The translations under genes were made by a program, and so were the position numbers. Below are positions 6,925 to 31,022 of a stretch of 64,000 bases of DNA, piece after piece; position 1 is the first letter of the stretch; each line of letters starts with the position of its first letter. Under the pieces are notes generated by a model. The model did not search any database. It saw only the letters and a program-made list of their open reading frames with translations, and was not told where the DNA came from. Source of the stretch: Cenarchaeum sp. (GTDB lineage: Archaea > Thermoproteota > Nitrososphaeria > Nitrososphaerales > Nitrosopumilaceae); assembly GCA_965242695.1 (NCBI GenBank), contig CBDESU010000002.1, positions 96,001 to 160,000 of the forward strand, in the 5' to 3' direction.

Positions 6925-7767
6925 CTATCGGTCCCTACTCAGCCTGTCGTTAACCACGTCAAGATACGTCAGAAGGTTGTCGTGTGCCGGATCCCACCCA
7001 CCGATGTGCCAGCTGAACGACTGCCACTCCCTTCCGTTCCGCGTTTCGGTTATCGCGCCGTCAGGCGGCCCGCCTTTGCGCGATATGGGAGGATCGAGCC
7101 AGAACATGTCGAGCGCAGCGTTGGGGTACGTGTCGTGCGCCATGATGAGCAGATCGGACGAGGTCCGGTCCCAGATGCCCTCGGGAATGGGATAGTCCTT
7201 GATCACGACGTATATCGCGTTGTCGACAGCCACCTCTACTTCAAAGCCCCTCGACTCCAGCTGGGCTATGTGATCCTGCAGCAGCGGAGGCACCCGTATC
7301 GCGGCCTGCGAGCCGAACGTGGCCGCGTTGACCGTACGAAAGCGCATCCCCAACACCAGCCTTATGATGTCGGCATCGGCCTTGGGCTCGTCATCGGCGC
7401 CGGCGGCCCTGCCGGGTTCGTCGACGAGTAGTATCAGCATATGGTGGATGGGAGCTCCCGCCATATCCTTGAGTTCCCTAGCCGTCATCTCCGGCTTCGA
7501 GGTCCTGTATTCTTTCCTGTTGATGGTTATTACGATGCCGCCGCCGGCCTCCGTGGCCGATCCGACCGGCTCGCCAGAGCCTCCCGGCGGCACTGTTCCC
7601 GCACCTCCGCCGATCGTCCCAGACGCCGTGGCCGGCCCAGCCCCGGGCCCCCGCCCCGCGCCATTGGCACCAAGCGACTCGCTACTCGTTAGCGTCCCAC
7701 TGTCAATCGCCTTGTCAACGGCCCGCCCCGCGCCATTGGCACCAAGCGACTCGCTACCCTGACTCAT
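6925..7767 (-). CDS. Multi-ubiquitin-like domain fused to a prokaryotic E2 family E domain (BubAB-like)
   Basis: Beta-grasp pattern IVITINRKEY..MTARELKDMAG..MRFRT ending ATFG; E2-E motifs YPIPEG, YPNAALDMFW, WQSFSWH, WDP..DNLLTYL; ATG 7767 is ~26 nt downstream of a TATA box. Confidence 0.82.
   Translation of the reverse strand: MSQGSESLGANGAGRAVDKAIDSGTLTSSESLGANGAGRGPGAGPATASGTIGGGAGTVPPGGSGEPVGSATEAGGGIVITINRKEYRTSKPEMTARELKDMAGAPIHHMLILLVDEPGRAAGADDEPKADADIIRLVLGMRFRTVNAATFGSQAAIRVPPLLQDHIAQLESRGFEVEVAVDNAIYVVIKDYPIPEGIWDRTSSDLLIMAHDTYPNAALDMFWLDPPISRKGGPPDGAITETRNGREWQSFSWHIGGWDPAHDNLLTYLDVVNDRLSRDR
7650..7757. repeat. 36-bp perfect direct repeat (7650-7685, 7722-7757) around a 36-bp unique insert
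   Basis: cccgccccgcgccattggcaccaagcgactcgctac occurs twice; encodes SESLGANGAGR twice. Confidence 0.9.
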
Positions 7768-7792
7768 ACTCGCTAGGCGGCCCCGCGTTTCC

Positions 7793-7799
7793 ATATAAA
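7793..7799 (-). promoter_or_regulatory. TATA box of the Ubl-E2/JAB-E1/TIR operon
   Basis: TTTATAT on the minus strand ~26 nt before ATG 7767. Confidence 0.6.
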
Positions 7800-8025
7800 C
7801 CTTGGTTGAGGCCAGTATGGCCGATCGATCACAGTGTATGGACAGTTCTTGCCGTCTGCAACTACATATCGAACGTCCACGCCATCGCGCGGCCCCAGGT
7901 CGAGCCGGCCGGCCCCTGCCGCGGCGCCCGCGTAGTGGACGCGTCGCCAGATCCGCCTGCCTGCGCGCTCCCTTGCCCCAGCGGACCAATGACGGTTTAA
8001 ATGGAAAACGCCGGCGCGCTCCCGC

Positions 8026-9051
8026 ATGATCGTCATCGACGAGGAGCGCATGCGCGAGATCATACGCGAGAGCTCGCCGGCGTCGGTGGCCCTCAACGGC
8101 CCCGAGGGGATGCTGCCGCAGGTGCAGCGCGCCGCCTCGTCCATATCCGACGAGTTCGGCATACCTGCGTACGTCCTCGGCGATGCCACATGGGGCGCGT
8201 GCGACCTGAACATGGCCGGCGCCCGCACCCTTGCCGCCGACATACTGTTCAACATCGGGCACACCGTCAGCACCGAGCAGGTCGGAAGGGGCGCGTACAT
8301 GATAAACGCCTACGACGACGTGCGGTTCGACGCGGTGGCCGCAAGGGCCGCGGCCCTCCTCGCCGGCCGGACGGTCTCGCTGCTCACCGACAGCCAGCAC
8401 CTGGACCAGGTCGATGCCGTCAGGGGCGCGCTCGAGGCCGGCGGCGCGTCCGTCGTCGTCGGCCAGGGAAGGGGTCAGCTCAACGACGGGCAGGTGTTCG
8501 GGTGCGAGTTCTATCCGGCCCTCGATGCGGCCGGGCAGGGCCCCCGCGGCGAAGAGGGGAAAAGGGCGGCAGACTGCAACGCCTTCATGGGCCAGAGCAC
8601 GTTCCACGCAGCCGGCGTGGCCCTGGCCACCGGCCTGCCCACGTACGTCCTCGACCCGTACTTTGGCGAGGTCCGCGACGTGACCGAGTTTGCCGCCGGC
8701 CTGCGCAAAAAGGCGACCCTTGCCGTGTACAAGGCAGCCGAGGCCGAGTCGTTCGGCGTCGTCGTCGGGCTCAGGGACGGGCAGATGTCCAAGACCGCCG
8801 GCCTGCGCGTAAAGAAGGAGCTGGAGGCGGCCGGCAAGAGGGTCCAGCTGATCGCGCTCACCGACATTACAAACGATGCGCTGCGGCGCTTTGCGGGGAT
8901 CGACGCGTTCGTCCAGTCTGCCTGCCCGCGCATCTCGACGGACAACCGCTTTGACGTGCCCGTCCTGTCCATCCCGCAGTCCAAGGCGCTCCTCAGGGTG
9001 CTGCGCGGCGAGGAGCCCGGCGAGTACCTGCTCGCGCCGCACTGGCTCTGA
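8026..9051 (+). CDS. dph2: Diphthamide biosynthesis enzyme Dph2
   Basis: GPEG, WGACD, GQVFGC, SACPRI Fe-S cysteine motifs. Confidence 0.9.
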   Translation: MIVIDEERMREIIRESSPASVALNGPEGMLPQVQRAASSISDEFGIPAYVLGDATWGACDLNMAGARTLAADILFNIGHTVSTEQVGRGAYMINAYDDVRFDAVAARAAALLAGRTVSLLTDSQHLDQVDAVRGALEAGGASVVVGQGRGQLNDGQVFGCEFYPALDAAGQGPRGEEGKRAADCNAFMGQSTFHAAGVALATGLPTYVLDPYFGEVRDVTEFAAGLRKKATLAVYKAAEAESFGVVVGLRDGQMSKTAGLRVKKELEAAGKRVQLIALTDITNDALRRFAGIDAFVQSACPRISTDNRFDVPVLSIPQSKALLRVLRGEEPGEYLLAPHWL

Positions 9052-9069
9052 GCGCCGAGGCTGGGAGCC

Positions 9070-10161
9070 TCACGGCCGCATGATGATCTTGCCGAACAGC
9101 CCGCTGCCGCGCAGCATCCTGGCGTGCGCCTCGGCCGCGCGTTCCATCGGGTACACCGAGTCGACTACGGCGCGCAGGCGCCCTCGCGCCATCCATCGCA
9201 GGCCGCGCTCGAGCTCGGCGCGCGTGCCCTGCGTAGAGCCGAGCACGTTCAGGCCCTCGGAGATCAGGCGGCGCAGGTCGGTGCGCACCTCGTAGCCGGT
9301 CGTGGCCCCCGTCGTCACGACGGTGCCGCCGCGGCGCAGCAGGCGCAGCTCCCTGCCCCAGTGCGACCCGCCGATGTGCTCGTAGATGACGTCGATGCAT
9401 CCGCCGTCCCCGCCGCGCCCCCTCGACCGGGCCAGGCCGGACGCGATGCGGCGCACCTCCTCGTCCCAGCCGCCTGAGCGGTGGTCGACGGCATGGTCGG
9501 CGCCGATCTCTAGGCACCGGTCGAGCTTGCCGGGGCCCGCGGTCGCGATCACGTCGCACCCGTGCAGCTTTGCAATCTGCACGCCGAACATGCCCATGCC
9601 GGACCCGCCGCCCATCACCAGGACGGTCTGGCCCGGCCGCACGCCGGCGCGCCCGACGAGCATGTGCCAGGACGTGGTCATCGTCATCGAGGCGGCCGCG
9701 GCCTCGTCGTACCCGACCCCGTCGGGGATCGGGACTGCGTTGTGCTCGGGCAGGTGCGCAAGCTCGCAGTAGCCGCCCCACAGCGGCCCCGTCTGGAATC
9801 CCCACACGAGCCGCCTGCGGCAGTCGTACTCGCGGCCGGCCGTGCACATGCGGCACACGCGGCACGACAGGTTGCCGTGCGAGACGACGCGGTCGCCCGG
9901 CTTCAGCGCAGTCACCCCGGCGCCGACCTCGACGACGTCGCCGGCGGCATCGGTGCCCGACACGTGCGGCATCGGCACGCCAATCGGCTTGCCGCGCATC
10001 CCCCAGATGTCGTCGTGGTTCAGGGCGGCGGCGCGCACGCGGAAGACGACCTCGCCCGGGCGCGCCCGCGGCGGGTCGATGTCCCTCACCGACAGGATCG
10101 ACGCAAAGTCGTCGTCCTCGGCGTACCTGTCGTACACGAGGGCCCGCACGGGGCCGCGCAT
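9070..10161 (-). CDS. Zn-binding medium-chain dehydrogenase/reductase
   Basis: CRVCRMC..C structural Zn site, GGGSGMG nucleotide-binding motif, GKII C-terminus. Confidence 0.85.
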   Translation of the reverse strand: MRGPVRALVYDRYAEDDDFASILSVRDIDPPRARPGEVVFRVRAAALNHDDIWGMRGKPIGVPMPHVSGTDAAGDVVEVGAGVTALKPGDRVVSHGNLSCRVCRMCTAGREYDCRRRLVWGFQTGPLWGGYCELAHLPEHNAVPIPDGVGYDEAAAASMTMTTSWHMLVGRAGVRPGQTVLVMGGGSGMGMFGVQIAKLHGCDVIATAGPGKLDRCLEIGADHAVDHRSGGWDEEVRRIASGLARSRGRGGDGGCIDVIYEHIGGSHWGRELRLLRRGGTVVTTGATTGYEVRTDLRRLISEGLNVLGSTQGTRAELERGLRWMARGRLRAVVDSVYPMERAAEAHARMLRGSGLFGKIIMRP

Positions 10162-10202
10162 GCCGCTAAACGGTTATAATTGAACCCGGCGCGGCGCGCG
10201 CC

Positions 10203-10766
10203 GTGCAGGAAGGGGGCCGCACCATACTGCCCGGCGAGGCGATCGCATCGATAGAGGAGTACGAGGCAGGGCCGAACACGTTCGACGACGGGGACAGGGT
10301 CAGGGCCGCGGCCGTCGGCACGGCCGAGGTGGACAGGGCCGAGAGGGTTGCAAGGGTGTCGACGCCGGTGCGGATGCACGTGCCCGACGTCGGCGACACC
10401 GTGGTCGGCACGGTCGCCATCGTCATGTCGGCGATGTTCGCCGTCGCCATCCGGTACGTCAACGGCAGGGCCGTCACGTCGAACGTAGAGTGCGTCTGCT
10501 CTACGCGCGACTCGCGCCGCCGCATGATCGCGCTCAACGGCGACGTCGTCGCGCTGCGCATACTCAGCCGCATCAACGGGACGATGCATGCGACGATCGA
10601 CGAGCCCGAGCTCGGCGTGCTGTTCACAAAGTGCCGCAAGTGCGGCATGGGCGTGATCACTGTCCGCGACGGCGTAAAGTGCGCCGAGTGCGGCTGGTTT
10701 GACGAGCGCAAGCTCTCGACGAACTTTGGCAGCGACCAGGCTGCCATCGGCGCGGCCGGTGCGTAG
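10203..10766 (+). CDS. csl4: Exosome RNA-binding subunit Csl4
   Basis: ILPGE start, S1 domain, ELGV..CRKCG..CAECG..RKLS. Confidence 0.9.
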   Translation: MQEGGRTILPGEAIASIEEYEAGPNTFDDGDRVRAAAVGTAEVDRAERVARVSTPVRMHVPDVGDTVVGTVAIVMSAMFAVAIRYVNGRAVTSNVECVCSTRDSRRRMIALNGDVVALRILSRINGTMHATIDEPELGVLFTKCRKCGMGVITVRDGVKCAECGWFDERKLSTNFGSDQAAIGAAGA

Positions 10767-10767
10767 C

Positions 10768-11691
10768 ATGGCCCCCGGCGGCGCGGCCGTCCGCGCCGCG
10801 TTCCAGGGCGAGCCCGGCGCGTACAGCGACGGCGCCGCGGTGGCCTTCTTTGGCGGGCAGGATCGCGTCAGGACCGTCCCATGCCAGACCATGGCCGCGG
10901 CCGTGGGCAGCGCAGAGGCCGGCGAGGCCGACTGCGCCGTCGTGCCCGTGGAGAACTCGATAGAGGGCAGCGTCGGCGAGAGCAACGACCTGCTGCGCAC
11001 TACGGGGCTGCGCGCGTTCGGCGAGGCGTACCACCGGATCGAGCACTGCCTCATCGGGCACGGCGCCGTCGGCGACGTTCGCACCGTGTACTCGCACCCG
11101 CAGGCGCTCGGGCAGTGCCGCCGGTTCGTCGAGAAAATGGGCTGGTGCGCCGTCCCCGCGTACGACACGGCCGGCAGCGCAATGATGGTCGCCGGGATGG
11201 GCCCCGCCCGCACGGATGCCGCGTGCATCGCGAGCAGGCGCGCGGCCGAGGTGCACGGCGTGCCCGTCATTCGCACGGGGATAATGGACAGCGGCGACAA
11301 CTACACCAGGTTCCTCGTCCTCGGCAGGGCGGACGGGCCGGGCGGCGGGCCGGGCGGCGCGCTGGCCGATGCGCTGGCGGGCCGCGAGGGCGGGGCAGGG
11401 CGGGCCGCATCAAAGACCTCGATCGTCTTTTCCGTAAGGGACGAGCCGGGCGCGCTCGGCAGGATAGTCGGCGCGCTCGGCAGGCGCGGCATAAACATGA
11501 CGAGGATCGAGTCGAGGCCGACGCGCAGCGCCGCGTGGGAGTACAACTTTTTCATCGACTTTGAGGGCCGCGAGGGCGAGGCGGACGCCGATGCGGCCCT
11601 TGCCGAGGTCGGAAGGGATGCGCTGTTCCTCAGGGTCGTCGGGTCGTACCCAGCCGCTCCGGCGCCGGCATCGGGCCGCCGCGCATCCTAG
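10768..11691 (+). CDS. pheA: Prephenate dehydratase
   Basis: FQGEPGAYS, PVENSIEG, SHPQALGQC, NYTRF, ACT domain IESRP. Confidence 0.92.
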   Translation: MAPGGAAVRAAFQGEPGAYSDGAAVAFFGGQDRVRTVPCQTMAAAVGSAEAGEADCAVVPVENSIEGSVGESNDLLRTTGLRAFGEAYHRIEHCLIGHGAVGDVRTVYSHPQALGQCRRFVEKMGWCAVPAYDTAGSAMMVAGMGPARTDAACIASRRAAEVHGVPVIRTGIMDSGDNYTRFLVLGRADGPGGGPGGALADALAGREGGAGRAASKTSIVFSVRDEPGALGRIVGALGRRGINMTRIESRPTRSAAWEYNFFIDFEGREGEADADAALAEVGRDALFLRVVGSYPAAPAPASGRRAS

Positions 11692-12155
11692 AACCCGCGC
11701 GGGTGGCGCAGGCTGAACGCGGCGCTGAACCCCATGATCACCACGCCCGAGATCATGACTAGCACGTGGTACGTAAAGTAGATCGGGTCGGTCGTCACCT
11801 GGGCGGCCCCCGCTATGACCATCTCCGAGGGGCCCGTGTTGCGCACGTGGACGATGCTCTCGCCGCTCTCCTCGTGCGTCCAGTCCAGGGAGGTGCGGTC
11901 CCGGTACGACGCGAGCGGCGCCTGCACGCCGGCCCCGGGGCTGCTCATCTCCAGCTCGAACAGGTCGGCCGTGACGGCAAGGTGCTGCCGCGCGCCAGCC
12001 TCGGCCGAGAACCTGTACGACGTCTGCTCGCCGGCGGCGAACGTCTCGTCGATGATGACCTCCTGGAGTCCGAGGTCGAGCAGGAACGAGGTCGCGCCGA
12101 TCGCGATTATGGCGGTGCCGGCGATCATGCCCACAAGGGTCTTGCCCGTGATCAC
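11688..12155 (-). CDS. Hypothetical membrane protein (N- and C-terminal TM helices)
   Basis: Hydrophobic termini around a beta-rich core; GTG start with an upstream TTTTAT element. Confidence 0.65.
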   Translation of the reverse strand: MITGKTLVGMIAGTAIIAIGATSFLLDLGLQEVIIDETFAAGEQTSYRFSAEAGARQHLAVTADLFELEMSSPGAGVQAPLASYRDRTSLDWTHEESGESIVHVRNTGPSEMVIAGAAQVTTDPIYFTYHVLVMISGVVIMGFSAAFSLRHPRGF

Positions 12156-12222
12156 GGGGGCGGCGGCGGGGCGCCCCGATAAAAGTCGAGCGCTTCGGCG
12201 CCCCGGCCGGCGGCGGGGCGCC

Positions 12223-13692
12223 CTAGGCGACCGACACGTCGTGCGGCTGGCTCTCGGCAAAGCCGGCGCGCGACATCTTGACGAACTCGGCGCTCGCCTG
12301 CATCTGGGGTATGGTCCGCGCCCCGCAGTAGCTCAGGCCCGAGCGGATGCCGCCGGTCAGCTGCTTGAGTATGTCGACGACGCTGCCCTTGTGGGGAACC
12401 ATCGCCTCGACGCCCTCGGCGACGTAGTCGTTGAGGTCGCCGTCCCCGTCGCCGTCGTAGGCGGCCGAGGAGCCTCCCGCCGCGCCCGGCCCGCCGCCCT
12501 CCTTGGAGCGGCGGCCGAGCGAGGCGCCGAGCGAGGCCATTCCCCTGTACACCTTGAACCGCTTGCCGTTCTTTGTGAGGACCGAGCCGGGCGACTCGTC
12601 GGTCCCGCCGAGTATGCTGCCGGCCATGACCGACGAGGCGCCCGCCGCAAGGGCCTTTGTCGCATCGCCCGACGTGCGCGTGCCGCCGTCCGATATGACG
12701 GGAATGCCGCTGTCGCGCGCGGCCTCGGCGCAGTCGAGGACGGCCGTAAGCTGCGGCACGCCCGAGCCCGTCACGACGCGCGTTATGCAGATCGAGCCGG
12801 ACCCGACGCCGACCTTTACGGCGTCGACGCCGGCCCGTATCAGGTCCCGGGCCCCGTCCGCCGTGGCCACGTTGCCGGCGATGAGCTCGCAGTCCGGGAA
12901 CGCCCTCTTGATGTTGCGCACGGCGTTGATCGCGTTGCTGCTGTGGCCGTGCGCGATGTCGACGACGATGACGTCGGCTCCGGCGGCGAGCAGCGACTCG
13001 GTGCGCTCCATAAAGTCGCCCTTTACCCCGACGGCCGCGCCGACGAGCGGGCGGCCCTTTTTGTCCTTTGACGCGTCCGGGTACCGATCCACGTCGCGTA
13101 TGTCCTTGCCTGTGATCAGGCCCCGTATGGCGCCGGCGCCGTCCACTATGGGAAGCTTTTCGATGCGCTCCCTGTGCAGCACGGCCTTTGCGTCCTCTGG
13201 GGCGATGCCGGGCTTTTCCGTAATGACGCTCCTTGTCATGACGTCGCGGACCGGCGCATCCAGGCCCGGCGCGAACCGCATGTCCCTGCTCGTCAGTATC
13301 CCGACGAGCCGCGAGCCGGGCCCCGCCACGAGCAGGCCCGAGACGCCGCGCTCGGCGGCGTACGCGGCGGCCTCGCCGATGGTCTGGTCTGGGCCGACCG
13401 TGTAGGGGTTCTCGATTACGACGCTGCCCGACCTCTTTGCGCGCAGCACCTCGGCCGACTGGTCGGCGACCGTGAGGAAGCGGTGGACGATGCCGATGCC
13501 TCCGGCCCGGGCCATGGCGACTGCCATGGCAGACTCGGTCACGGTGTCCATGTTGGCGCTCACGAGCGGGATGCGCAGCGAGATGTTGCGCGACAGGCGC
13601 GTCCCCAGGTCGACCTGCGACCGGCTCGTAATGTCCGAGTAGCGCGGGACGAGCAGGACGTCGTCAAAGGTCAGGCCGTCGCGGAATTCCAT
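12223..13692 (-). CDS. guaB: IMP dehydrogenase
   Basis: [39 protein letters not shown] pair. Confidence 0.96.
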
Positions 13693-13898
13693 GTGCCCTT
13701 TCGGGGCGCCGCAAAAATCGTAATAAGCCTTTGTCGGGCCGGCGGCGGGATCCGCGAGGGGCGGCCCGATGGGGCGCCGCGCAGGTCGTCCCCTCGCCCC
13801 CATGCCCCCGCCCGGCGGGGGCGGGCGGGCCAGGCGGCGGGGGCGGGCGGCTCCAGCCCGCCCGCCCCCCCCCCCACGGGCCTGCGCGCACGGCGTTG

Positions 13899-14007
13899 CT
13901 ACCCGGGACGGGCCAGGCGGCGGGGGCGGGCGGCCTCAAGCCCGCGTCCGAGAGCCCGACAGTCAAGGGACTACCCGGGACGGGCCAGGCGGCGGGGGCG
14001 GGCGGCC
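13899..14007. repeat. 37-bp perfect direct repeat (13899-13935, 13971-14007) around a 35-bp insert; duplicates the folP 3' end
   Basis: ctacccgggacgggccaggcggcgggggcgggcggcc twice; a partial third copy at 13826-13851. Confidence 0.9.
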
Positions 14008-14888
14008 CTGCCCGATGCGGCCGAGGCCGCCGCGACCGCCGCGGCCGTGCCGGCCGCGCTGTGCGTGCGTATGACGTCGGCCCCGTTGAGGACGACGGCC
14101 GCCTCGCACGACAGCGAGCCGGCCGCGCGGCGGGAGGGGGCCGGGGCCCTGCCGCCCCGGCCCACCACGGCCCCTATGAACGACTTTGCCGAGGCCGAGA
14201 CGACGACCGGATAGCCGAACCGCAGGCGCCGCAGGTCCCGTACGATGGACAGGTCGCGCCGCGCCCAGGAACCGCGGGCCGCGCGGCCGCCCCGGCCCGT
14301 GCGCGTAAAGAGGCGCCCCCTGCCGGTCCCGCGGAAGAACCCGAGCGCCGGATCGACGGCGATCCTCGAGCGCGGCACCCCTGCATCCCTGGCGATCTCG
14401 ACGCTGCCCTCGAGGAGCGCGCGCGTCTCGCGCCAGCCGCCATCCTCGGCCCGCGACGCGTGGGCGCACACGACGACGGAGGCGCCGTGCCGGGCCGCCG
14501 CGCCGCGCAATTCGGGGTCGTACCGCAGGCCCGTCACGTCGTTGACTATGGATGCGCCGCGCTCAAGGGCCGCCTCGGCCGGCGCGGCGCGGCACGTGTC
14601 GACCGAGACGGGCAGGGACGTGGCCGAGCGGGCCGCCTCGGCTGCCATGGCCACGCGCGCGGCCTCTTCTTTCTCCGGGATCATCGTGTCGAGGTACGGC
14701 GCAGTCGACATGCCGCCGACGTCTATGATGTCGGCCCCCTCGCGCTGCATGCGGGCCGCGGCGGCTGCGACGGCCCGCCGCGTCGTCCTCACCGATGCGC
14801 CGTAGAACGACTCTGGGCTCGCGTTGATGATCCCCATTACAAGGACGGGGGCCGCCCCGCCCGCCCTCGCCCCGCCCAGATGCGCCAC
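13971..14888 (-). CDS. folP: Dihydropteroate synthase
   Basis: MGIINASPESFY, DIIDVGGMST, SVDT, NDVTG, DPALGF, SAKSF, IRTH. Confidence 0.9.
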   Translation of the reverse strand: MAHLGGARAGGAAPVLVMGIINASPESFYGASVRTTRRAVAAAAARMQREGADIIDVGGMSTAPYLDTMIPEKEEAARVAMAAEAARSATSLPVSVDTCRAAPAEAALERGASIVNDVTGLRYDPELRGAAARHGASVVVCAHASRAEDGGWRETRALLEGSVEIARDAGVPRSRIAVDPALGFFRGTGRGRLFTRTGRGGRAARGSWARRDLSIVRDLRRLRFGYPVVVSASAKSFIGAVVGRGGRAPAPSRRAAGSLSCEAAVVLNGADVIRTHSAAGTAAAVAAASAASGRAARPRRLARPG

Positions 14889-14921
14889 AGGTTTATCACA
14901 TGCGGGCCGGATTTGAACCGT

Positions 14922-15800: not shown

Positions 15801-15837
15801 CGAATGCGTTTTATAGCTCGCAGGGTGGTGCGGCGGC

Positions 15838-16536: not shown

Positions 16537-16550
16537 CGGGCGGTGGTTGC

Positions 16551-18095: not shown

Positions 18096-18097
18096 CC

Positions 18098-19159
<1,062 letters not shown>

Positions 19160-20884: not shown

Positions 20885-20927
20885 CGGCCGGCGCGCCCCA
20901 AGTACCCTATATGAACATTCGGATGGC

Positions 20928-22991: not shown

Positions 22992-23050
22992 GCGCCGTCA
23001 GGGGCGGGCGCATATTTAACGCTTAAATGCCCGCGCATGCGGGCGCGCCC

Positions 23051-23338
23051 GTGAACTACCCAAAGGCCATCCGCCGGTACTGCCCGCGGTGCAAGCAGCA
23101 CACGCTGCAAAAGGTCTCGATCTACAAGGCCGGCAAGCGGCGCGCGTCAGCGATCGGCGAGCGCCGCCACGCCGAGGACAAGAAGGGGTACGGCGGGCAA
23201 AAGTTCCCAAAGCTGGCAAAGCCGGCAAAGGTGACGAAGAAGGTCACGCGCATCCTCACGTGCCCCGGCTGCAAGAAAAAGTTCAGCACAAGGGGCATAC
23301 GGATCAAAAAGTTCGAGCTGGTGGCGACTGCGGCATGA
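23051..23338 (+). CDS. rpl44e: 50S ribosomal protein L44e
   Basis: YCPRCKQHT, KGYGGQKFP, AKVTKK, CPGC. Confidence 0.95.
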   Translation: MNYPKAIRRYCPRCKQHTLQKVSIYKAGKRRASAIGERRHAEDKKGYGGQKFPKLAKPAKVTKKVTRILTCPGCKKKFSTRGIRIKKFELVATAA

Positions 23339-23562
23339 AGAGGGAGCACAAGGAGATACCGGAGCCGTCGAGCACCTTCAACAGGGTGCAGTGCGACGAG
23401 TGCAAGGAGACGCAGATCATCTACTCGCATGCGACGACGCTCGTCACGTGCCACTCTTGCGGGAACGAGATAGCCACCCCGACCGGGTCGGCCGCCGTCC
23501 TCAAGGGCAAGAGGATGGAGTCGGTCTCTAGCCAGCCGGCGGCCGCGCCGGCCCGCGAGTGA
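23335..23562 (+). CDS. rps27e: 30S ribosomal protein S27e
   Basis: VQCDEC..QIIYSHA..CHSCG..PTG; ATGA overlap with rpl44e. Confidence 0.93.
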   Translation: MKREHKEIPEPSSTFNRVQCDECKETQIIYSHATTLVTCHSCGNEIATPTGSAAVLKGKRMESVSSQPAAAPARE

Positions 23563-23597
23563 GGGACGGCCGAGGGTGTGGGCGCCGGCCGCCCCGG

Positions 23598-24245
23598 CTA
23601 GCGCTCGCAGCCTGCCCTGCGCGCGGCAGGCTCAATGTCCGCGGCGATGTTGTAGCTGACCCGAAGCGCCGGGAGGTCGAGGACAATGCGGGCCTCGTCG
23701 ACCGCTTCCGCGCCGCGCCGCCGGGCGGCGCCCCCGAGGTCGACAATGGACACGCCGGTGTAGGCCGCCTCCCCGCCGGGCGCCAGGTACTCGAACCGGC
23801 CGGCATCGCCGCCCTTGACCGGCACGACAAAGGCGGCCCACGCGGGCCGGCGCCCGTCCCGCCCGGCGCGCGCGGCGTACGCCCGCTCCACGGCGCGCAC
23901 GTCGGCGGCGCGCAGGAGCGGCATGTCGCCGGGAACGGCCAGCACCCTTCCCCTGTGCCCGCGGCCTGCCAGGACCGACAGGGCCGCGGCAAGGTCCAGC
24001 GAATAGCCGTCCGCAGGCGTCGGGACGGTTCCGATGCCGGCGCGGCGGAGGGCGGCCGCGGCGGCCGGCGCGCGCGGGCTTGTCGCTGCGTACACCTCGG
24101 ACACTACACCCGAGGAGCGCAGGGCGTCGACTACGCCGAGGACGACGGGCATGCCGTCGCCGCGCCCGGCGAGGAGCTTTTCGGCGGGGCCTCCGCTCGC
24201 GGCCATGCGGGACCCGCGGCCGCCGGCCATTACGAGCCCGATCAT
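23598..24245 (-). CDS. cobY: Adenosylcobinamide-phosphate guanylyltransferase
   Basis: MAGGRGSRM..EK NTP-transferase motif, PGDMP; located in the cob cluster. Confidence 0.75.
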   Translation of the reverse strand: MIGLVMAGGRGSRMAASGGPAEKLLAGRGDGMPVVLGVVDALRSSGVVSEVYAATSPRAPAAAAALRRAGIGTVPTPADGYSLDLAAALSVLAGRGHRGRVLAVPGDMPLLRAADVRAVERAYAARAGRDGRRPAWAAFVVPVKGGDAGRFEYLAPGGEAAYTGVSIVDLGGAARRRGAEAVDEARIVLDLPALRVSYNIAADIEPAARRAGCER

Positions 24246-25057
24246 GCCGAGACAAAGACCAGCACGGCGGCCAGGCGAGCAACCTCGTTGCCAGCGCCGA
24301 GCACGTCGCCAGTGATCCCCCCCAGGCTTCTTGACGATACGAGCACAAGGACGAGGGCGGCCGCCGCGGCGGCCGCAAGCGCGAGCGCCCCGGCATGCCC
24401 CCCCAGCGCGACTGCCGGCACGGCGGCGGCCGCGGCTGCCGCGGCAAGCCGCAGCCGGCCGGTTCGGCCGCGGGCGGCCCCTGCAAAGACGGCGCCCGAG
24501 CCGGCGGCGGCCGGGCGGCCGGCGGCGGCCATCAGCACCATTGCAAACTTTGCGGCCGCCTCGGAGAGGACGACGGCCAGCAGCATCCCGTACGCGCCGC
24601 CGGCAAGCGACAGGCCTGCGACGGCGCCGATGCACGACAGGGCCACGGCAGACGTGCCGGCCGCGCCGACCGAGCCGTCGCGCATGGCCGCGATGCGGCG
24701 GGCCCTCGTGCCGCGCGCCATCAGGCCGTCGGCCGCATCCGCCAGCCCGTCCAGGTGGTGGAATCCCGTCAGGACGGCCGTGGCTGCGACCGCCACGAAC
24801 GCGGCGACGAGCGGGTCGGCGCCGGCGAGCATCGCGCCTGCGCCGGCCGAGCCGGCCGCAAGGCCGAGGATCATCCCGACTATCGGGAACGCGGGCATGC
24901 CGCGGGCGGCCGGCTCGAGGGCCCGCGGCCCGACCGCATCCGTGCCGGCATCGGCGCCAGCGCCGGCGCCGGCGGGCCGCGCCCCGGCTCTGCCCCCTCC
25001 CCCGACGGGCAGCACGGTCAGGAACGACAGGGCCGCCCGGAACGGATCGTCAGCCAA
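24242..25057 (-). CDS. cobS: Adenosylcobinamide-GDP ribazoletransferase
   Basis: SFLTVLP, HLDGLADAADG, MRD..GAAG, GGITGDVLGA. Confidence 0.9.
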   Translation of the reverse strand: MADDPFRAALSFLTVLPVGGGGRAGARPAGAGAGADAGTDAVGPRALEPAARGMPAFPIVGMILGLAAGSAGAGAMLAGADPLVAAFVAVAATAVLTGFHHLDGLADAADGLMARGTRARRIAAMRDGSVGAAGTSAVALSCIGAVAGLSLAGGAYGMLLAVVLSEAAAKFAMVLMAAAGRPAAAGSGAVFAGAARGRTGRLRLAAAAAAAAVPAVALGGHAGALALAAAAAAALVLVLVSSRSLGGITGDVLGAGNEVARLAAVLVFVSA

Positions 25058-26213
25058 GCGCCAGCCACCACGCCCAGGATACGGCCGCGGCCGACACGGC
25101 GGCAACGGTGCATGCAAACACGGCGCATGCGGCCTTCATAATCGACACCGACGAGCGTATGAGCGCCGCATCGGGAAGCTGGGCAGGGGCGGAGGGGGCG
25201 GAGGGGGCGGAGGGGGCGGAGGGGGCGGAGGGGGCGGAGGGGGCGGAGGGGGGCCGGCTCGCGCCCAGGCAGTACGATCCCACTTTTTCAAGCCTGGCCC
25301 CGAGGGCGCCTGCCATCGCCGCCATCGGGTACCCCGAGTTGAGGCTGTCCGGCGCCGACGCGTCGCGCGCCATGACCCTGTACGCCGCGCGCCAGTCCGC
25401 GCGCGGGACGAGCGCGGCCGCGGCGACCACGCAGAGTGCCGTCAGGCGCGCTGGCGCATAGTTGAGGGCCGTGTCGCACCTAGCCGCAAACCACCCGAGG
25501 TCGCGGAACATCCACGTGCGGTACCCGACCATCGAGTCGAGCGTGCTGACGGTCCGATGCGCAAACGCGCCGGGCAGCCCGAACAGCCCAAAGTAGAACA
25601 GCGGCCCCGTCACGCCGTCGACCGTATTCTCAGAGACGCTCTCGATGGCGGCCGAGGCGACGTGCGCGCCGTCAAGCCGCGACGTGTCGCGCTTTACGAT
25701 CATTGCAAGGGATGCGCGCGCGCCGTCCAGGTCGCCCTCATCGAGCCGCCGCGCCACCGCGAGCGCATGCACCTCCATGCCGCGCAGCGATAACGTCGTC
25801 TTTAGCAGGACGGCCGAGGCGGCGGCCGGCAGCGCAAGGGCCAGGACGGCGGCAGGCCAGCCGGCGGCCGGCACGGGGGTGCCTGGCCAGCATGGCGGCC
25901 AGGGCCAGGCCAGGGCGGCGGCGGCACCCAGGGCCGCGGATGCGGCCCACGCCAGGCCGGCTACAAGTGCGACCATCCCGGCGACCAGGGCCGCGCCGGC
26001 GGCCCTCTTCCCCCCAGGCCCCCCCCTCCGGCCCGCCGCGAGCAGGCGCGGCACGGCCGCGCCGGCAAGCCGCCCGGCCCACGCGGTAGGGTGCAGGCGG
26101 TTTGGCGGATCGCCGGCGGCGCGATCCAGGAGCAGGGCGGCGGCCATCGTGCACGACCCGGCGGCGGCCGCGCCGGCGGCGCCCCACCACCACAGGCAGG
26201 CCTCAGCGGCCAC
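25050..26213 (-). CDS. cbiB: Adenosylcobinamide-phosphate synthase CbiB/CobD
   Basis: GDPP..HP, ESVSEN..DGV, TLDSMVGY, NYAPARL, NSGYP. Confidence 0.9.
   Translation of the reverse strand: MAAEACLWWWGAAGAAAAGSCTMAAALLLDRAAGDPPNRLHPTAWAGRLAGAAVPRLLAAGRRGGPGGKRAAGAALVAGMVALVAGLAWAASAALGAAAALAWPWPPCWPGTPVPAAGWPAAVLALALPAAASAVLLKTTLSLRGMEVHALAVARRLDEGDLDGARASLAMIVKRDTSRLDGAHVASAAIESVSENTVDGVTGPLFYFGLFGLPGAFAHRTVSTLDSMVGYRTWMFRDLGWFAARCDTALNYAPARLTALCVVAAAALVPRADWRAAYRVMARDASAPDSLNSGYPMAAMAGALGARLEKVGSYCLGASRPPSAPSAPSAPSAPSAPSAPSAPAQLPDAALIRSSVSIMKAACAVFACTVAAVSAAAVSWAWWLALG
25185..25252. repeat. 9-bp tandem repeat (ggggcggag)x~7 encoding (SAP)n within cbiB
   Basis: Seen directly in sequence. Confidence 0.85.
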
Positions 26214-27126
26214 CGAGGACCATCTCCTCGACCGCCCTCATGTCGAGGCTTTGCCGCACCGCGCCGGCGAGCCGGTCGATCTCGGCATCGAGCCGGTCGA
26301 CCTCGCGCGGCGTCCACGAGAACGGGTCGCTTGCGGGCGGAGGCGGCCTCTGGCGCGGCATGTAGGGCGGCGGCTGGCGGCTCGCCCCCGCCGCCGCGTT
26401 GCCGGCTCCGACGTCGAGCGAGTCCTCGCCCGGTATGTCCATGTCGATCATTGGGACTACGCCGAGGACGGCGCGCCCCGTGGCCCTCTTCAGCCGCGGG
26501 TACGCCGGCTTGAGCACGGCCGCATCGCCGCGGAACCTGTTGAGGACGAACCCGCGCACGAGCTTTTTGTGGCGCTCGGGCAGCAGCATCATCGTGCCCG
26601 CCAGGCTCGCAAACGAGCCGCCCCTGTCGATGTCGCTGACCAGGATCACCGGGGCCCTCGCCTTTTCGGCCATTGCCATGTTGGCAATGTCGTACCGCTG
26701 CAGGTTTATCTCGGCCGGCGAGCCGGCGCCCTCGAGGATCACGATGTCGCGGCCCGAGGCGAGGCGCCGCAGGGCCGACAGGGCCGCCGCCATGCCGCCG
26801 AGCGGCGCGAACTCGTAGTGGTACTCCTTGTAGTGCATGCGGCGCAGCCGCTTGCCGTTGAGGTAGACCATGCTGTACAGGCCCCCGAGGGGCTTGAGCA
26901 GGACGGGGTTCATGTCGGGCGAGGCGGCCGCGCGGGCCCCGACGGCCTGGACGGCCTGCGCGCGCGAGATGCGAAAGCCCTTGCCCCTGTACGAGAACGA
27001 CGACATGTTCTGCGACTTGAAGGGGGCCACCGAGTACCCCATGTCCGAGAATATCCTGCACAGGGCCGTCACAAGGGTCGTCTTGCCGGCTCCCGACGAC
27101 GTGCCCTGGACCATGAGCGCCATCAT
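26203..27126 (-). CDS. cobQ: Cobyric acid synthase, short form without glutamine amidotransferase domain
   Basis: QGTSSGAGKT, PFKSQNMS, MNPVLLKP, EGAGSPAEINL, DIDRGG, EDS. Confidence 0.88.
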   Translation of the reverse strand: MMALMVQGTSSGAGKTTLVTALCRIFSDMGYSVAPFKSQNMSSFSYRGKGFRISRAQAVQAVGARAAASPDMNPVLLKPLGGLYSMVYLNGKRLRRMHYKEYHYEFAPLGGMAAALSALRRLASGRDIVILEGAGSPAEINLQRYDIANMAMAEKARAPVILVSDIDRGGSFASLAGTMMLLPERHKKLVRGFVLNRFRGDAAVLKPAYPRLKRATGRAVLGVVPMIDMDIPGEDSLDVGAGNAAAGASRQPPPYMPRQRPPPPASDPFSWTPREVDRLDAEIDRLAGAVRQSLDMRAVEEMVLGGR

Positions 27127-28277
27127 ATGCGCCGCAGCGCCCCGACGAGCCTTTTATTTTCAGCTGCCGTGCGCACGGCGACCCGTATGTGGCGGGCGCT
27201 GCGCCCGCCGCGGGGCCCGAGGCCGCCGAACGACGAGCAGTCGCGCACGAGTACTCCCCGCCCGAGCAGGGCCGAGCGGACGGCGGCGGCCGGCCGCGCG
27301 GTGCGGACGAGCACAAAGTTGGCCCTCGGGCGGCCGACGCACTCGAAGCCCGGCGTGGCGTCGATCTCGCGCACGAGGCGGGACCTCTCGCGCGAGACGA
27401 GGCGCCGGGCCCTCTCGACGTGGCCCGCATGCCGGAGCGCCTCGAGCGCGCCGGCCTGGGCCGGCCCCGAGACGCCCCACGGCAGCCTTATCCGGGAGAG
27501 GATCGCCGCCGCGCGGGCCCCGCACACGGCGTACCCGACGCGCGCGCCGGCGAGCCCGAACGACTTTGTCAGCGAGCGGAGGACGACCATGTGGGGACGG
27601 CGCGGCGCGGCCGGCGCCACGGACCCGGCCGGCGCGGCGCCGGGGCCGTCGGCCAGCTCCACAAAGCACTCGTCGACGAGCAGCATCGCCGACGCGTCGG
27701 CCGCCGCCGAGGCCAGCCCGAGCACCTGCCTGGGCTCCAGGGTCTCGCCCGTCGGGTTGTTCGGAGTGCACACGAACGCGCAGCCGTTCCTCGGAATCGC
27801 CTCGGCGAACCTGTCCAGGTCGGCGGCAAGGTCCATCGATGCAAGGCGGAACGGGGCGGCGCCGGCGAGCCGTGCTGCCGCCTCGTACTCGCCGAACGCA
27901 GGGGCCTGGACAAGGGCGCGCGTCCGGCGCGCGGCGAACGCGCGGCAAAAGTTGTAGATGATCTCGGTCGCGCCGCAGCCGACGACCACGTTCGACGGGG
28001 ACCCGGCCCCGGCGTGCCCCGCAAGGGCCTCGCGCAGCAGCGACGAGTCGGGATCCGGATAGGTGCGGCCGGCGGGGCCGGCCGCGGCCCTTGCCATTGC
28101 GGCGGCCGCGGCAGGCGGCGGGCCGAGCGGCGAGACGTTTGAGCTGAAGTCGAGCAGGGGCGGGGCGGGGCGGGGCGGGCGGCCGCCCCGGGCGGGGCGG
28201 GGCGGGGCGGGCGGGGCCGAGTGCGGCCCGCCGTGCTCGGCCTGCCGGTGCATGGCCACCTCAGGGGGAACGCGCAT
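27123..28277 (-). CDS. cobD: Threonine-phosphate decarboxylase (PLP, class I/II aminotransferase fold)
   Basis: HGG, DFSSNVSP, YPD, PNNPTG, DE, RSLTKSFGLAGARVGY; cob cluster context. Confidence 0.8.
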   Translation of the reverse strand: MRVPPEVAMHRQAEHGGPHSAPPAPPRPARGGRPPRPAPPLLDFSSNVSPLGPPPAAAAAMARAAAGPAGRTYPDPDSSLLREALAGHAGAGSPSNVVVGCGATEIIYNFCRAFAARRTRALVQAPAFGEYEAAARLAGAAPFRLASMDLAADLDRFAEAIPRNGCAFVCTPNNPTGETLEPRQVLGLASAAADASAMLLVDECFVELADGPGAAPAGSVAPAAPRRPHMVVLRSLTKSFGLAGARVGYAVCGARAAAILSRIRLPWGVSGPAQAGALEALRHAGHVERARRLVSRERSRLVREIDATPGFECVGRPRANFVLVRTARPAAAVRSALLGRGVLVRDCSSFGGLGPRGGRSARHIRVAVRTAAENKRLVGALRRI

Positions 28278-28321
28278 GCGCGGGCGGCGGGGGCGGGAGT
28301 TTAGTTTGTTTTGCGGGCAGG

Positions 28322-28431
28322 GCGGGGAGAGGGGCCGGCCATGCGGGTGGACGGCGGCCGACGACGCGCCCAACGTAGAGTACAACGGCACGATGCGGGG
28401 AGAGGGGCCGGCCATGCGGGTGGACGGCGGC
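28322..28431. repeat. 37-bp perfect direct repeat (28322-28358, 28395-28431) around a 36-bp insert
   Basis: gcggggagaggggccggccatgcgggtggacggcggc twice, intergenic. Confidence 0.9.
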
Positions 28432-28595
28432 AGGGGCGGCGCCTCGCCGGCCGGGAGCCGTCCCGCATGTGCGGGGCCCGCATCGGCGCCTCGCTTCGCC
28501 GCTGGCCGGGCTAGCGGCGCGCCCTGGTGCCTGCCGCTAGCGCGCATGCGCGCGCCTGCCAACGAATATTAAATCGGCGCGGCCGTCGTGCCGCA

Positions 28596-29693
28596 ATGGA
28601 AGGGGACGGAGGCGCCAAAAAGAGGGTGGCCATACTTGGCGCCACCGGCGCCGTCGGTCAGGAATTCGTCCAGTCGCTCGAGGGGCATCCGTGGTTCGAG
28701 GTCGCGCAGATCGCCGCGTCCGAGCGCTCGGCCGGCAAGACGTACATCGAGGCGATTCGCGACGAGACGGGCATTGTAAACTGGCAGGTAGGCGGCGAGG
28801 TGCCGGGATACGTCAGGGCCATGACGGTCCGCTCCATCGACGAGGTCGACCCGTCGGGCCTGGACCTGGTCTTTTCGGCCATCGAGTCGGGCGCGGCGCG
28901 CGACATAGAGACCAGGTTTGCCGCGCACCTTCCGGTCATATCGACCAGCTCGGCGTACAGGTACGAGGAGGACGTCCCCATACTCATACCCGGCGTGAAC
29001 GACGAGCAGTCCGATCTGCTCGACCGCCAAAGCTCGAACAGGGGCTGGAAGGGCTGGGTCGCGCCGCTGCCCAACTGCACGACCACAGGCCTGGCCATTA
29101 CGCTAAAGCCGCTGCACGAGAGGTACGGCGTCAAAAAGGTGCTCATGACGTCGATGCAGGCCATATCGGGCGCCGGCAGGGCACCGGGCGTGTCGGCCAT
29201 GAACATTACCGACAACATAATCCCGTTCATCGCAAAGGAAGAGGGCAAGGTGCGCAAGGAGACGCGCAAGATACTCGGCAAGCTCGGCGAGGACGGGCGC
29301 ATCCGCGACGCCGACATAATGGTGAGCGCCACGTGCACCCGCGTGCCCGTAATCGACGGCCACACCGAGGCCGTCTCGATCGAGACCGAGAGGGACGTCG
29401 ACCCCGGCGCGGCCAAGGACGCGTACGGCGAGGCGAACCGGACCGTGTCGGTCGCAGGGCTGCCGTCGGCTCCCGAGTCGTACTATGCCTTCCACGAGGA
29501 CCCCACGCGCCCGCAGCCGCGCCTCGAGAGGGACGTGGGCGGCGGCATGACGACGACCATCGGCCGCGTAGAGAGGGAGGAGATATTCGAAAAGGGGCTA
29601 AAGTACATGCTGTTCTCGCACAACAAGAAGATGGGGTCCGGCAAGGGCGCTGTCCTGCTCGCCGAGATGCTGCTCAAGAGGGCAAAGATATAG
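28596..29693 (+). CDS. asd: Aspartate-semialdehyde dehydrogenase (archaeal type)
   Basis: GATGAVGQ, ASERSAGK, PNCTT, QAISGAG, CTRVPVIDGH. Confidence 0.9.
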   Translation: MEGDGGAKKRVAILGATGAVGQEFVQSLEGHPWFEVAQIAASERSAGKTYIEAIRDETGIVNWQVGGEVPGYVRAMTVRSIDEVDPSGLDLVFSAIESGAARDIETRFAAHLPVISTSSAYRYEEDVPILIPGVNDEQSDLLDRQSSNRGWKGWVAPLPNCTTTGLAITLKPLHERYGVKKVLMTSMQAISGAGRAPGVSAMNITDNIIPFIAKEEGKVRKETRKILGKLGEDGRIRDADIMVSATCTRVPVIDGHTEAVSIETERDVDPGAAKDAYGEANRTVSVAGLPSAPESYYAFHEDPTRPQPRLERDVGGGMTTTIGRVEREEIFEKGLKYMLFSHNKKMGSGKGAVLLAEMLLKRAKI

Positions 29694-29805
29694 CCCAGGG
29701 GGCGGTGCCGCCTTTGCGCCGCGGCGGCATGCTGTCCGCCCGTCGGCCGGTGCCAGCCTGGCCTCCTACCGTGCGAAAAAAAAAGGACGGCCGGGATCAG
29801 GCCGC

Positions 29806-30690
29806 CTAGGACAGCTTTTCAAGGATCCTGGTCTGCGTCTCCAGCATGCGCTGGAAGAACACGCGGTTGTCGCTGGACATTGTCTCGATGGACACGGCCA
29901 CGCGGTCAAGCCGGTCTAGGACGCGCGTGTTGCGTTCCTCGGCGTTGGCCTCGGCGCGCTCCGCCCGGGCCTCGGCGCGCTCCGCCCGGGCCTCGGCGTT
30001 GGCCTCGGCGCGCTCCGCCCGGGCCTCGGCGTTGGCCTCGGCGCGCTCCGCCCGGGCCTCGGCGTTGGCCTCGGCGCGCTCCGCCCGGGCCTCGGCGTTG
30101 GCCTCGGCGTTGGCCTCGGCGCGCCTTGCACGGACCTCGGCGCGCCTTGCACGGACCTCGGCGCGCTCCGCCCGGGCCCTTATCACGGCGCGCGTCTTCC
30201 TGCCCTCTTTGCCAAACGCAGTCATGAGGCTCCGGCCGACGTCCATCGTAGTAAGGGACATCACGAATCCTACGCCGCCGGTCAGTATAAAAGCTGTTCC
30301 TAGGCCTATGTGTTCCAGCGCCCCTCGCACGCTCTCGGCGAGCAGGAAGACGCCCGATCCTACCATGGTCACGTAGACGAGGTTCTGGCGGCGTATGAGG
30401 AGCCTGCGGAGCCTGCGGAGCCTAGAGCCGGCGCGCCTCGGCGACGCGGCGTCGGTTGCCTGCGCAGGTGCCTGCGGGTCAGTAGAGAGTGCGGATCCCC
30501 TGCGCCTTGGCGCTGCGGCATCCCGCCTTCCTGCATCGCTCCCGCCCCGGCCTGTCCGGCGCCGGCCGCGGGCGCGCCCCGTCTCTGCGGCATCCCGCCT
30601 TCCTGCATCGCTCCCGCCCCGGCCTGTCCGGCGCCGGCCGCGGGCGCGCCCCGTCTCTGCGGCATCCCTCTTCTTTGCATCTTTTTTCAT
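29806..30690 (-). CDS. Hypothetical 2-TM protein with tandem-repeat coiled coil
   Basis: TTTATAAG ~25 nt upstream of ATG; 69-bp N-terminal duplication; two hydrophobic segments; AERAEANAEAR repeats. Confidence 0.6.
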   Translation of the reverse strand: MKKDAKKRDAAETGRARGRRRTGRGGSDAGRRDAAETGRARGRRRTGRGGSDAGRRDAAAPRRRGSALSTDPQAPAQATDAASPRRAGSRLRRLRRLLIRRQNLVYVTMVGSGVFLLAESVRGALEHIGLGTAFILTGGVGFVMSLTTMDVGRSLMTAFGKEGRKTRAVIRARAERAEVRARRAEVRARRAEANAEANAEARAERAEANAEARAERAEANAEARAERAEANAEARAERAEARAERAEANAEERNTRVLDRLDRVAVSIETMSSDNRVFFQRMLETQTRILEKLS

Positions 30691-30899
30691 GGCGGGGCGG
30701 TACCGTATTACCTTATAAAACTTGGTATATCCAGCATAGGCATACTGCCCGGCCTCCACCATGGCAGAGCCGCCCCCCCCCCCTCCCGGCCGGCAGGTCG
30801 GCGGCCCGGCGCCGGTGCACCCCCGCACCCTACTCCCCCGTCCGCCCGCCCCGGAGGCTGGCAGGGCGCCCCTGCATCGCCCCCCAACCCCCCCTCCTC

Positions 30900-31022
30900 C
30901 CCCTTCCCCCGGCCCGCTGGCGCGCAGCCCTGCATGCGCTTGGCAGAGGCGGGAGCGGCACAGTCAATGTCGGGGCTCCCTCCCCTTCCCCCGGCCCGCT
31001 GGCGCGCAGCCCCGCATGCGCT
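30900..31022. repeat. 41-bp direct repeat (30900-30940, 30982-31022; 1 mismatch) around a ~41-bp insert
   Basis: ccccttcccccggcccgctggcgcgcagccc(t/c)gcatgcgct twice, intergenic. Confidence 0.85.

Follow-up and report, generated by a model that had tools for sequence, protein, structure and literature searches.

Dispersed repeat-insert-repeat sites in a Cenarchaeum genome as probable off-target integrations of its own type I-G CRISPR system

The genome of the archaeon Cenarchaeum sp., which encodes a thermosome and a diphthamide synthase, as fits an archaeon, and is present in runs labelled sponge metagenome, in several of them at a word share of 0.53-0.80, carries numerous short scars in which a unique piece of about 36 bp is enclosed by two copies of a similarly long stretch of local sequence. 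The scars were first noticed in a stretch of 64,000 nucleotides (positions 96001-160000 of contig C2, hereafter the window), and we report here that they form a genome-wide class of 86 sites. These sites are very probably fixed products of off-target (ectopic) spacer integration by the organism's own type I-G CRISPR system, namely by its fusion of Cas4g and Cas1g (Cas4/1) together with Cas2. Frequent ectopic spacer integration by Cas1-Cas2 had been suggested in a preliminary description of the window made from its sequence, and this suggestion is now supported by the geometry of the resident CRISPR array, by single-copy paralogs of individual sites, by inserts that could be traced to their sources, and by the distribution of similar sites among related genomes.

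A genome-wide class of sites

The 3.89 Mb of the genome (two contigs, C1 and C2, with a GC content of 0.67-0.68) were scanned for exact direct repeats of at least 20 nt lying within 400 nt of each other, and the CRISPR array as well as short-period tandem repeats were then removed. This left 282 non-tandem pairs with a copy length of 28-44 nt and a period of 45-160. A quarter of these pairs (70 out of 282) have a period between 68 and 73, with 9, 2, 6, 16, 29 and 8 pairs at the successive periods; outside this range, each period not divisible by three is represented by zero to two pairs. Copy length peaks at 36-38 nt, and none of the 70 pairs is accompanied by a third in-register copy.

A search that tolerated mismatches and covered periods 68-76 yielded 109 candidates, from which 19 tandem-like ones and later four further tandem cases were dropped. 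The final set comprises 86 non-tandem sites, 46 on C1 and 40 on C2, and both copies are identical at 60 of them. The histogram of their periods shows a sharp peak at 71-73 (period 68, 8 sites; 69, 5; 70, 7; 71, 22; 72, 33; 73, 8; 75, 2; 76, 1), and the commonest copy lengths are 36 (18 sites), 37 (11) and 38 (10), the excess of copies longer than 36 being roughly what chance matches at the boundaries would give. The sharp genome-wide length peak that had been predicted from the window was thus found, at about 36 bp for copy and insert, and a flat distribution did not occur. For several analyses we used a core set with a copy length of 34-39 nt and a period of 70-74, which holds 52 sites, or 51 after removal of one tandem case.

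In genomes of this kind CRISPR finders would report many false two-repeat arrays. A separate 102-nt tandem repeat family, located at C1:1736600-1737150 and elsewhere, contributes 42 exact pairs and also occurs in the sample of a related genome (G004, see below); the stray insert C2:1502087 reproduces part of its unit.

Insertion with duplication of the target

Each site was compared, together with flanks of 150 nt, with the genome by BLAST in order to find paralogs, followed by global alignments. For several sites the two flanks map to overlapping positions in a paralog, and the overlap equals the copy length. Three sites have paralogs in which the target stands once between the two flanks (Table 1), and the site itself contains an extra, flush block of 71-72 nt. 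The single-copy paralogs thus show insertion with target duplication at C1:1059971, C1:398407 and C1:1455387. At C1:1104056 and C1:1488776 the BLAST overlap matches in the same way, and the global alignments were ambiguous. The duplicated part had been described as ordinary local sequence, and this applies to the class as a whole: it differs at every site, includes gene ends and is single in the paralogs.

Such structures could also be read as one and a half copies of 72-bp tandem duplications, in which the insert would be native sequence and the duplication a product of either replication slippage or unequal exchange. Repeats of this kind do exist in the genome, as a true 72-bp tandem of 2.5 copies is located at 30502-30681 of the window, the region C2:173431-173700 resembles a mixed or decayed 72-bp repeat region, and the 19 candidates mentioned above were removed precisely because they were tandem-like. 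However, the paralogs show the older state to be single-copy, with insert and second copy added as one block of 71-72 bp, and eight of the 52 core inserts were copied from distant loci (see below). In addition, periods 70, 71 and 73 show the degree of enrichment that the CRISPR array predicts, whereas the other tandem repeats of this genome favour multiples of three, and third copies are lacking in all 70 pairs. A tandem origin is therefore highly improbable, and the inserts are not the diverged halves of 72-bp tandem units, an outcome that the preliminary description had named as contradicting its proposal.

The resident type I-G system and its dimensions

The only Cas1 in the whole genome is a fusion with Cas4 (L003:4922-6883, minus strand, 653 amino acids; Pfam Cas_Cas1, E = 4.5e-87; Cas_Cas4, E = 1.1e-14), which scores 688 bits against the NCBIfam model Cas4g/Cas1g (cut-off 560) and is adjoined by Cas2. 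The effectors Cas3g, Cas8g2, Cas7g and Csb2 are found on the other side of the array; Cas7g and Csb2 score above their cut-offs, and Cas3g (390, cut-off 400) and Cas8g2 (111, cut-off 125) both lie just under them. Judged by these profile matches, the CRISPR-Cas system on C1 is of type I-G. An alignment with six homologues indicates that the nuclease and cysteine motifs of Cas4 are kept in the fusion, and its homologues in genome contigs from many phyla show at most 48% identity, near relatives having been left out of that search. As stated earlier for the window, no cas genes are present there; the cas locus is located on the other contig.

The array (C1:1072688-1096404) is placed between cas2 and cas3 and consists of 330 repeats of 36 nt, with spacers of 36 (121), 35 (77), 37 (66), 34 (30) and 38 nt (28). 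A comparison of the scars with the genome's own CRISPR repeat, spacers and cas1, cas2 and cas4 genes had been proposed as a check, and it gives a repeat of 36 nt, spacers of 34-38 nt with a mode of 36, and one Cas4/Cas1 fusion with Cas2. If 36 is subtracted from the period, the inserts measure 34-37 nt, also with a mode of 36, although 13 of the 86 (period 68-69) fit less well. The geometry of the scars thus equals that of the array.

Established Cas1-Cas2 chemistry suggests how such a scar could form. The integrase would join both 3' ends of a prespacer of about 36 bp to a chromosomal site, one to each strand and at a distance of 36 bp from each other, with the complex setting this spacing as it does for the CRISPR repeat, and filling of the two single-stranded gaps would leave the 36-bp target duplicated on either side of the new piece.

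Given this geometry, the sites might instead be decayed or orphan CRISPR arrays, each of them down to two repeats and one spacer. One mini-array of this type, in which a variant form of the canonical repeat occurs twice, is present at C2:312248. At the sites considered here, in contrast, the duplicated stretch is different each time, is ordinary local sequence and includes gene ends (locus 2 of the window), the single-copy paralogs contradict an array ancestry, and the canonical repeat is matched by no site outside the array even if up to 7 mismatches are allowed. Among all explanations considered, this one has the least to recommend it, and its probability is close to negligible.

Several other features of the CRISPR loci were observed. 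The mini-array (C2:312248-312345) and two degenerate repeats that sit just upstream of C1:1072688, beside the main array, share the ends of the main repeat (CTTCAATGGGGCCGC...GCGGAA) and have different hairpin stems, in which the changes compensate each other; they appear to be left over from other I-G arrays. Cas7g and Csb2 each occur twice in C1:1052001-1072000 (L001), with DDE/IS66-type transposase frames between the copies, which indicates that the cas locus has been rearranged. A minus-strand orientation of the array is favoured by its leader side, which is next to cas2, and by the AGC at the end of the repeat, as in the Geobacter system. Array spacers 246 and 320 are the sole ones with perfect self matches (donors C2:698844-698878 and C1:975632-975669), and both have TTA beside the protospacer, in these two cases on the side that would be wrong for an array read from the leader near cas2; they may be flipped spacers that are harmless to the cell.

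Origin of the inserts

Tracing of the inserts to the host genome, which had been suggested as a further check, was successful for 8 of the 52 core inserts. Each of the eight corresponds over its full length to a distant locus of this genome, with an identity that ends at the insert boundaries (100% for four inserts, about 94% for three and 88% for one). A ninth match, C2:21121, which is a complete site in duplicate, was disregarded, and nothing in the genome matches the remaining 44 core inserts. Of three donor sites that were checked, two are located in ordinary genes (e.g. for arginyl-tRNA synthetase and a tetrapyrrole methylase). A mobile-element origin of the donor loci was considered and rejected because the checked donor regions hold ordinary housekeeping genes. 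For loci 1 and 3 of the window, an exact-match search of viral_contigs with the insert gave 0 matches in each case, a result with which a viral origin is still compatible.

Full-length self matches are found for 15% of the stray inserts versus 2 of 329 array spacers (0.6%). This contrast would fit a removal of self-targeting spacers from the working array, where they would be harmful, and their harmlessness at stray sites. Mean GC content over the 52 core sites is 0.68 for inserts and 0.75 for the duplicated stretch, with array spacers at 0.66, and the earlier observation that the inserts are less GC-rich than the sequence around them thus extends beyond the window. The 86 inserts have neither a motif nor ends in common; the heptamer CAGTCAA, seen at loci 2 and 4 of the window, occurs in 2 of the 86 and is not enriched.

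A shared protospacer adjacent motif (PAM), which the preliminary description had proposed to look for, was not found at the traced donor sites, and TTN is absent from all 16 flanks of these eight sites. In the type I-U (now I-G) system of Geobacter sulfurreducens, Cas4/1-Cas2 acquires mostly 36-bp spacers and selects a TTN PAM, and Cas4 mutants lose the choice of PAM and keep the spacer length of 36 bp (PMC6547450). With no TTN beside their donors, the stray inserts resemble prespacers that had bypassed the selection for a PAM.

Inserts templated from distant chromosomal sites and lacking a PAM would likewise be expected if staggered double-strand breaks had been repaired with templated filler during end joining, a process unrelated to CRISPR. 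This explanation offers no reason for a fixed stagger of 36 bp and a fixed filler of 34-38 bp, both of which match the array, nor for the absence of sites in relatives without Cas1 (see below), and a nuclease that leaves staggers of 36 nt is not known to us. Break repair is thus as improbable as the tandem origin discussed above.

Target sites and their location

The duplicated stretches, taken here as the targets of off-target integration, are richer in GC (0.75) than non-coding DNA (0.67). The dinucleotide GC is present at bases 4-5 from the end in 39 of 102 copy ends, compared with 14% of random intergenic 36-mers (binomial p ~1e-9). The ends of the canonical repeat are GCTTC and CCTTC, with TC at bases 4-5, so that the C at base 5 alone is common to the repeat and the target motif.

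According to gene labels that are approximate, 36 of the 52 core sites are intergenic, 9 touch the edge of a gene, and the other 7 are situated inside predicted genes, for the most part in their first or last tenth. We infer that the sites are errors that were retained because they are nearly neutral, most of them being intergenic or at gene ends, where the duplication spares the gene. The process had been proposed to generate new sequence; as the sites are mostly intergenic, the amount is small (about 86 x 72 bp).

Relatives with and without Cas1

Portions of 200-380 kb of six related genomes were sampled and searched with the same filter for non-tandem pairs with a period of 68-74. Four of these relatives belong to the same genus, and a Cas1 frame of the size of Cas4/1 is present in two of them, G004 (3.7 Mb) and G002 (3.2 Mb), and in neither G001 (2.0 Mb) nor G003 (1.8 Mb). 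In the 380 kb sampled from G002, 27 of 35 pairs fall in the period range, with a commonest period of 71; in the 380 kb of G004 the number is 9 of 25, with 8 of the others belonging to the 102-nt tandem family. Both genomes have large arrays with 36-nt repeats, the commonest period is 72-73 in G004 and 71 in G002, and the peak of pairs is in each case near the period of its own array. Samples of 200 kb were analysed for the remaining genomes: G055, which belongs to another genus, has a GC content of 0.64 and encodes Cas4/1, contains three such pairs out of three, G017 (GC content 0.39, with Cas4/1) none out of one, and the Cas1-free G001 and G003 none out of one and none out of two, respectively. 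Sites were thus seen in the samples of three of the four relatives with Cas1 or Cas4/1 and in none of the two without Cas1, which is a co-occurrence only. By extrapolation from the samples, the Cas1-bearing congeners would hold about 75-225 sites each.

Some units in G002 have apparently been extended into neo-arrays of 3-4 copies with different inserts. A four-copy neo-array with three different inserts is located at positions 36223-36460 of the 380-kb concatenate, and one of its inserts contains the last 12 nt (3' end) of the canonical repeat of G002, followed by other sequence, as if it had been captured from the CRISPR array itself.

The Cas1-bearing genomes with stray inserts have sizes of 3.2-3.9 Mb and a GC content of 0.67-0.69, compared with 1.8-2.0 Mb and 0.51-0.57 for the Cas1-free congeners. 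As the stray inserts here total about 6 kb, this difference in size is not explained by them.

The preliminary description had offered an unknown ruler-based integrase as the second possible agent, and a ruler-type enzyme or a small mobile element that inserts pieces of about 36 bp with a target duplication of about 36 bp has to be considered. Its proponents could point to the traced inserts, which lack the TTN PAM expected of spacers processed by Cas4/1, and to G017, which has Cas4/1 and yet no site in 200 kb. On the other hand, the lengths of insert and duplication are both those of the resident array, an additional enzyme is unnecessary, and the commonest period in G002 shifts to 71 along with its own array. 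There are no sites in the samples of the two Cas1-free relatives, and the lack of any sequence, ends or motif common to the inserts argues against a mobile element. This explanation is therefore very unlikely, even though it ranks slightly ahead of the tandem and break repair origins.

The four loci in the window

At three of the four loci described for the window the A-B-A architecture is exact, with flanking copies that are identical within each locus and an unrelated middle piece, as read directly from the sequence (Table 1). The claim of one architecture at all four loci thus holds for those starting at 7650, 13899 and 28322 and fails for the one at 30900, whose copies are imperfect (47 nt at 94% identity, of which 31 nt are exact) with a period of 82, and whose division into 41+41+41 bp was arbitrary. 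Locus 4 is outside the class with periods of 70-74, and its membership is uncertain.

The second copy at locus 2 contains the last 11 codons and the stop codon of a predicted pterin-binding gene (13974-14888, minus strand). This gene is intact because the gene-side duplicate supplies these codons, and the locus illustrates why sites at gene edges are tolerated.

Table 1. Positions of the repeat-insert-repeat loci in the window (window coordinates) and of single-copy paralogs of three further sites (contig coordinates)
Feature	Position	Remarks
Locus 1, first copy (36-bp target)	7650-7685	Intergenic, between predicted genes 5549-6922 (-) and 8026-9048 (+, diphthamide synthase)
Locus 1, insert (36 bp, putative ectopic spacer)	7686-7721	GC content 0.56; single occurrence in the genome
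Locus 1, second copy (36 bp)	7722-7757	Identical to first copy
Locus 2, first copy (37-bp target)	13899-13935	Repeat family D16
Locus 2, insert (35 bp, putative ectopic spacer)	13936-13970	GC content 0.66
Locus 2, second copy (37 bp)	13971-14007	Begins with CTA, the reverse complement of a TAG stop
Locus 3, first copy (37-bp target)	28322-28358	Repeat family D19; divergent intergenic region between an aminotransferase gene (-) and an aspartate-semialdehyde dehydrogenase gene (28596-29690, +)
Locus 3, insert (36 bp, putative ectopic spacer)	28359-28394	GC content 0.61
Locus 3, second copy (37 bp)	28395-28431	Identical to first copy; period 73
Locus 4, atypical direct repeat	30894-31022	Copies 30894-30940 and 30976-31022 with 35 nt between them; repeat family D20
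Paralog of site C1:1059971	C2:384823-385105	92-95% identical; single copy
Paralog of site C1:398407	C1:2010807-2011144	Single copy
Paralog of site C1:1455387	C1:1445896-1446220	Single copy

The 72-bp tandem at 30502-30681 (A-B-A-B-A') lies inside a predicted gene of 318 amino acids for which Pfam gave no match. Its origin could be an old A-B-A unit that grew by unequal exchange, or it could be an unrelated coding repeat. Long coding tandem repeats are also found in the window at 33612-35741, 49428-50507, 54695-54942, 25177-25252 and 29883-30196, with units of 15/132-162, 81, 33, 9 and 12-33 nt, respectively, within large predicted genes (e.g. frames of 1108 and 880 amino acids), and the genome is unusually rich in repeats of this type.

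Points that weigh against the interpretation

Several observations fit off-target integration by Cas4/1-Cas2 less well or limit what can be concluded from the data. The identification of Cas4/1-Cas2 as the responsible enzyme is based on the matching geometry and on co-occurrence. The relatives were sampled in part and are kin, so that the co-occurrence with Cas1 represents a pattern rather than a statistical test, and the G017 sample, with Cas4/1 and no site, departs from that pattern. The missing TTN at the traced donor sites is at odds with the choice of TTN by the one I-G Cas4/1 that has been studied and with a Cas4 domain that appears intact. With respect to lengths, the copies measure 34-35 bp, below the repeat length, at 16 of the 52 core sites, and the periods 68-69 of 13 of the 86 sites are rare in the array; the inserts at these 13 sites (e.g. 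C1:38299, C1:1680131, C1:2138088) are about 3-4 nt below almost any array spacer. A similar shoulder at period 69 is seen in G002. The target motif resembles the ends of the canonical repeat weakly. Our gene map was produced by a home-made codon-bias caller and covers 75% of the genome, and coding and intergenic labels are approximate for this reason.

In the place of single-copy empty sites in sister strains, for which the preliminary description had asked, stand the three single-copy paralogs within this genome. A search of metagenome contigs with the adenine deaminase encoded beside loci 2-4 as query recovered relatives with at most 50% identity, none of them at strain level. The orthologous regions of G004, the nearest species with a gene identity of about 85%, gave no clean alignment at four sites, the intergenic DNA having diverged too far: locus 2 hints at a single copy in a low-complexity context, locus 3 and C1:1495196 are unalignable at the site, and C2:885523 is not colinear.

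Implications

Our literature search, in which supplements were not covered, found no report of a large-scale natural accumulation of stray integration sites, and none for sponge archaea. The mechanism appears to be of a known kind, studied mainly in engineered E. coli; what appears to be new is the scale in natural genomes, its presence in an archaeal system of type I-G, seen in several symbionts with related genomes, and the nature of the inserts, which are in part self-derived and without a PAM. The natural relevance of off-target integration has been an open point, and a large record of it from nature seems to be preserved in these genomes, with about 86 sites here and more per Mb in one relative. 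Such a record would show what Cas4/1-Cas2 inserts, and where, in the absence of selection for immunity: about 15% self DNA, no PAM in the traced cases, and GC-rich targets. It would also contain candidate early stages of new CRISPR arrays and make measurable what CRISPR adaptation costs in mutations, a burden that host-associated archaea seem to tolerate when their genomes are enlarged and poor in genes.

A bolder conclusion would be that stray integration is a regular and consequential activity of the I-G module, which continually seeds repeat-spacer units, some of them growing into arrays, guides or coding additions. We consider this rather unlikely. If it were true, some units may give rise to transcripts that are processed into guides, among them guides that target the organism's own genes, and other units may add in-frame segments of 24 codons at gene ends; the sites would then provide a natural view of the birth of CRISPR arrays, and the CRISPR integrase would be a genome-wide source of new sequence in organisms under relaxed selection.

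Comparison with known systems

Casposons, the other elements with a Cas1-family integrase considered here, were rejected as the identity of the sites because the inserts have a length of 33-38 bp without common ends and the sole Cas1 of the genome is a CRISPR-type fusion. Target duplications of casposons are about 14-15 bp long. Casposons resemble the sites in that a Cas1-family integrase gives rise to a target-site duplication, but they are multi-kilobase elements with terminal inverted repeats, whereas the inserts here are about 36 bp (33-38 bp) long, share no ends and are accompanied by a 36-bp duplication (PMC5137440).

Ectopic spacer acquisition in Streptococcus thermophilus and S. mutans is similar to the proposed events with respect to integration away from the leader-proximal repeat; however, it reportedly uses genuine internal repeats of the array, whereas unrelated chromosomal targets are affected here (PMC7999890, PMC5338259). 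The I-G system of Geobacter sulfurreducens is closer in its components, with the same protein family, a predominance of 36-bp spacers, and Cas2 and the array downstream of cas4/1. Canonical integration in Geobacter takes place at the leader-proximal repeat and uses TTN-flanked protospacers, in contrast to the non-repeat sites and the donor flanks without TTN found in this study (PMC6547450).

The closest parallel to off-target integration in Cenarchaeum sp. is provided by E. coli, in which overproduced Cas1-Cas2 is reported to integrate off target and to be able to spawn new arrays (Nivala, Shipman and Church 2018; 10.1101/148544, PMC7054753, PMC6698737). According to a preprint that cites this work, evidence from natural genomes was circumstantial and confined to two other species (10.1101/148544). 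In both organisms a spacer-sized piece is placed outside the array and a repeat-length target is duplicated, which creates a new repeat-spacer-repeat unit, and further integrations can extend such a unit in the E. coli neo-CRISPR loci, similar to the neo-arrays of 3-4 repeats in G002. The E. coli work dealt with a type I-E system, overexpressed Cas1-Cas2 and supplied oligonucleotides, and detected the events in cultures, whereas the sites described here belong to a natural archaeal genome with a type I-G system, in which about 86 of them, with a duplication of 36 bp, have become fixed.

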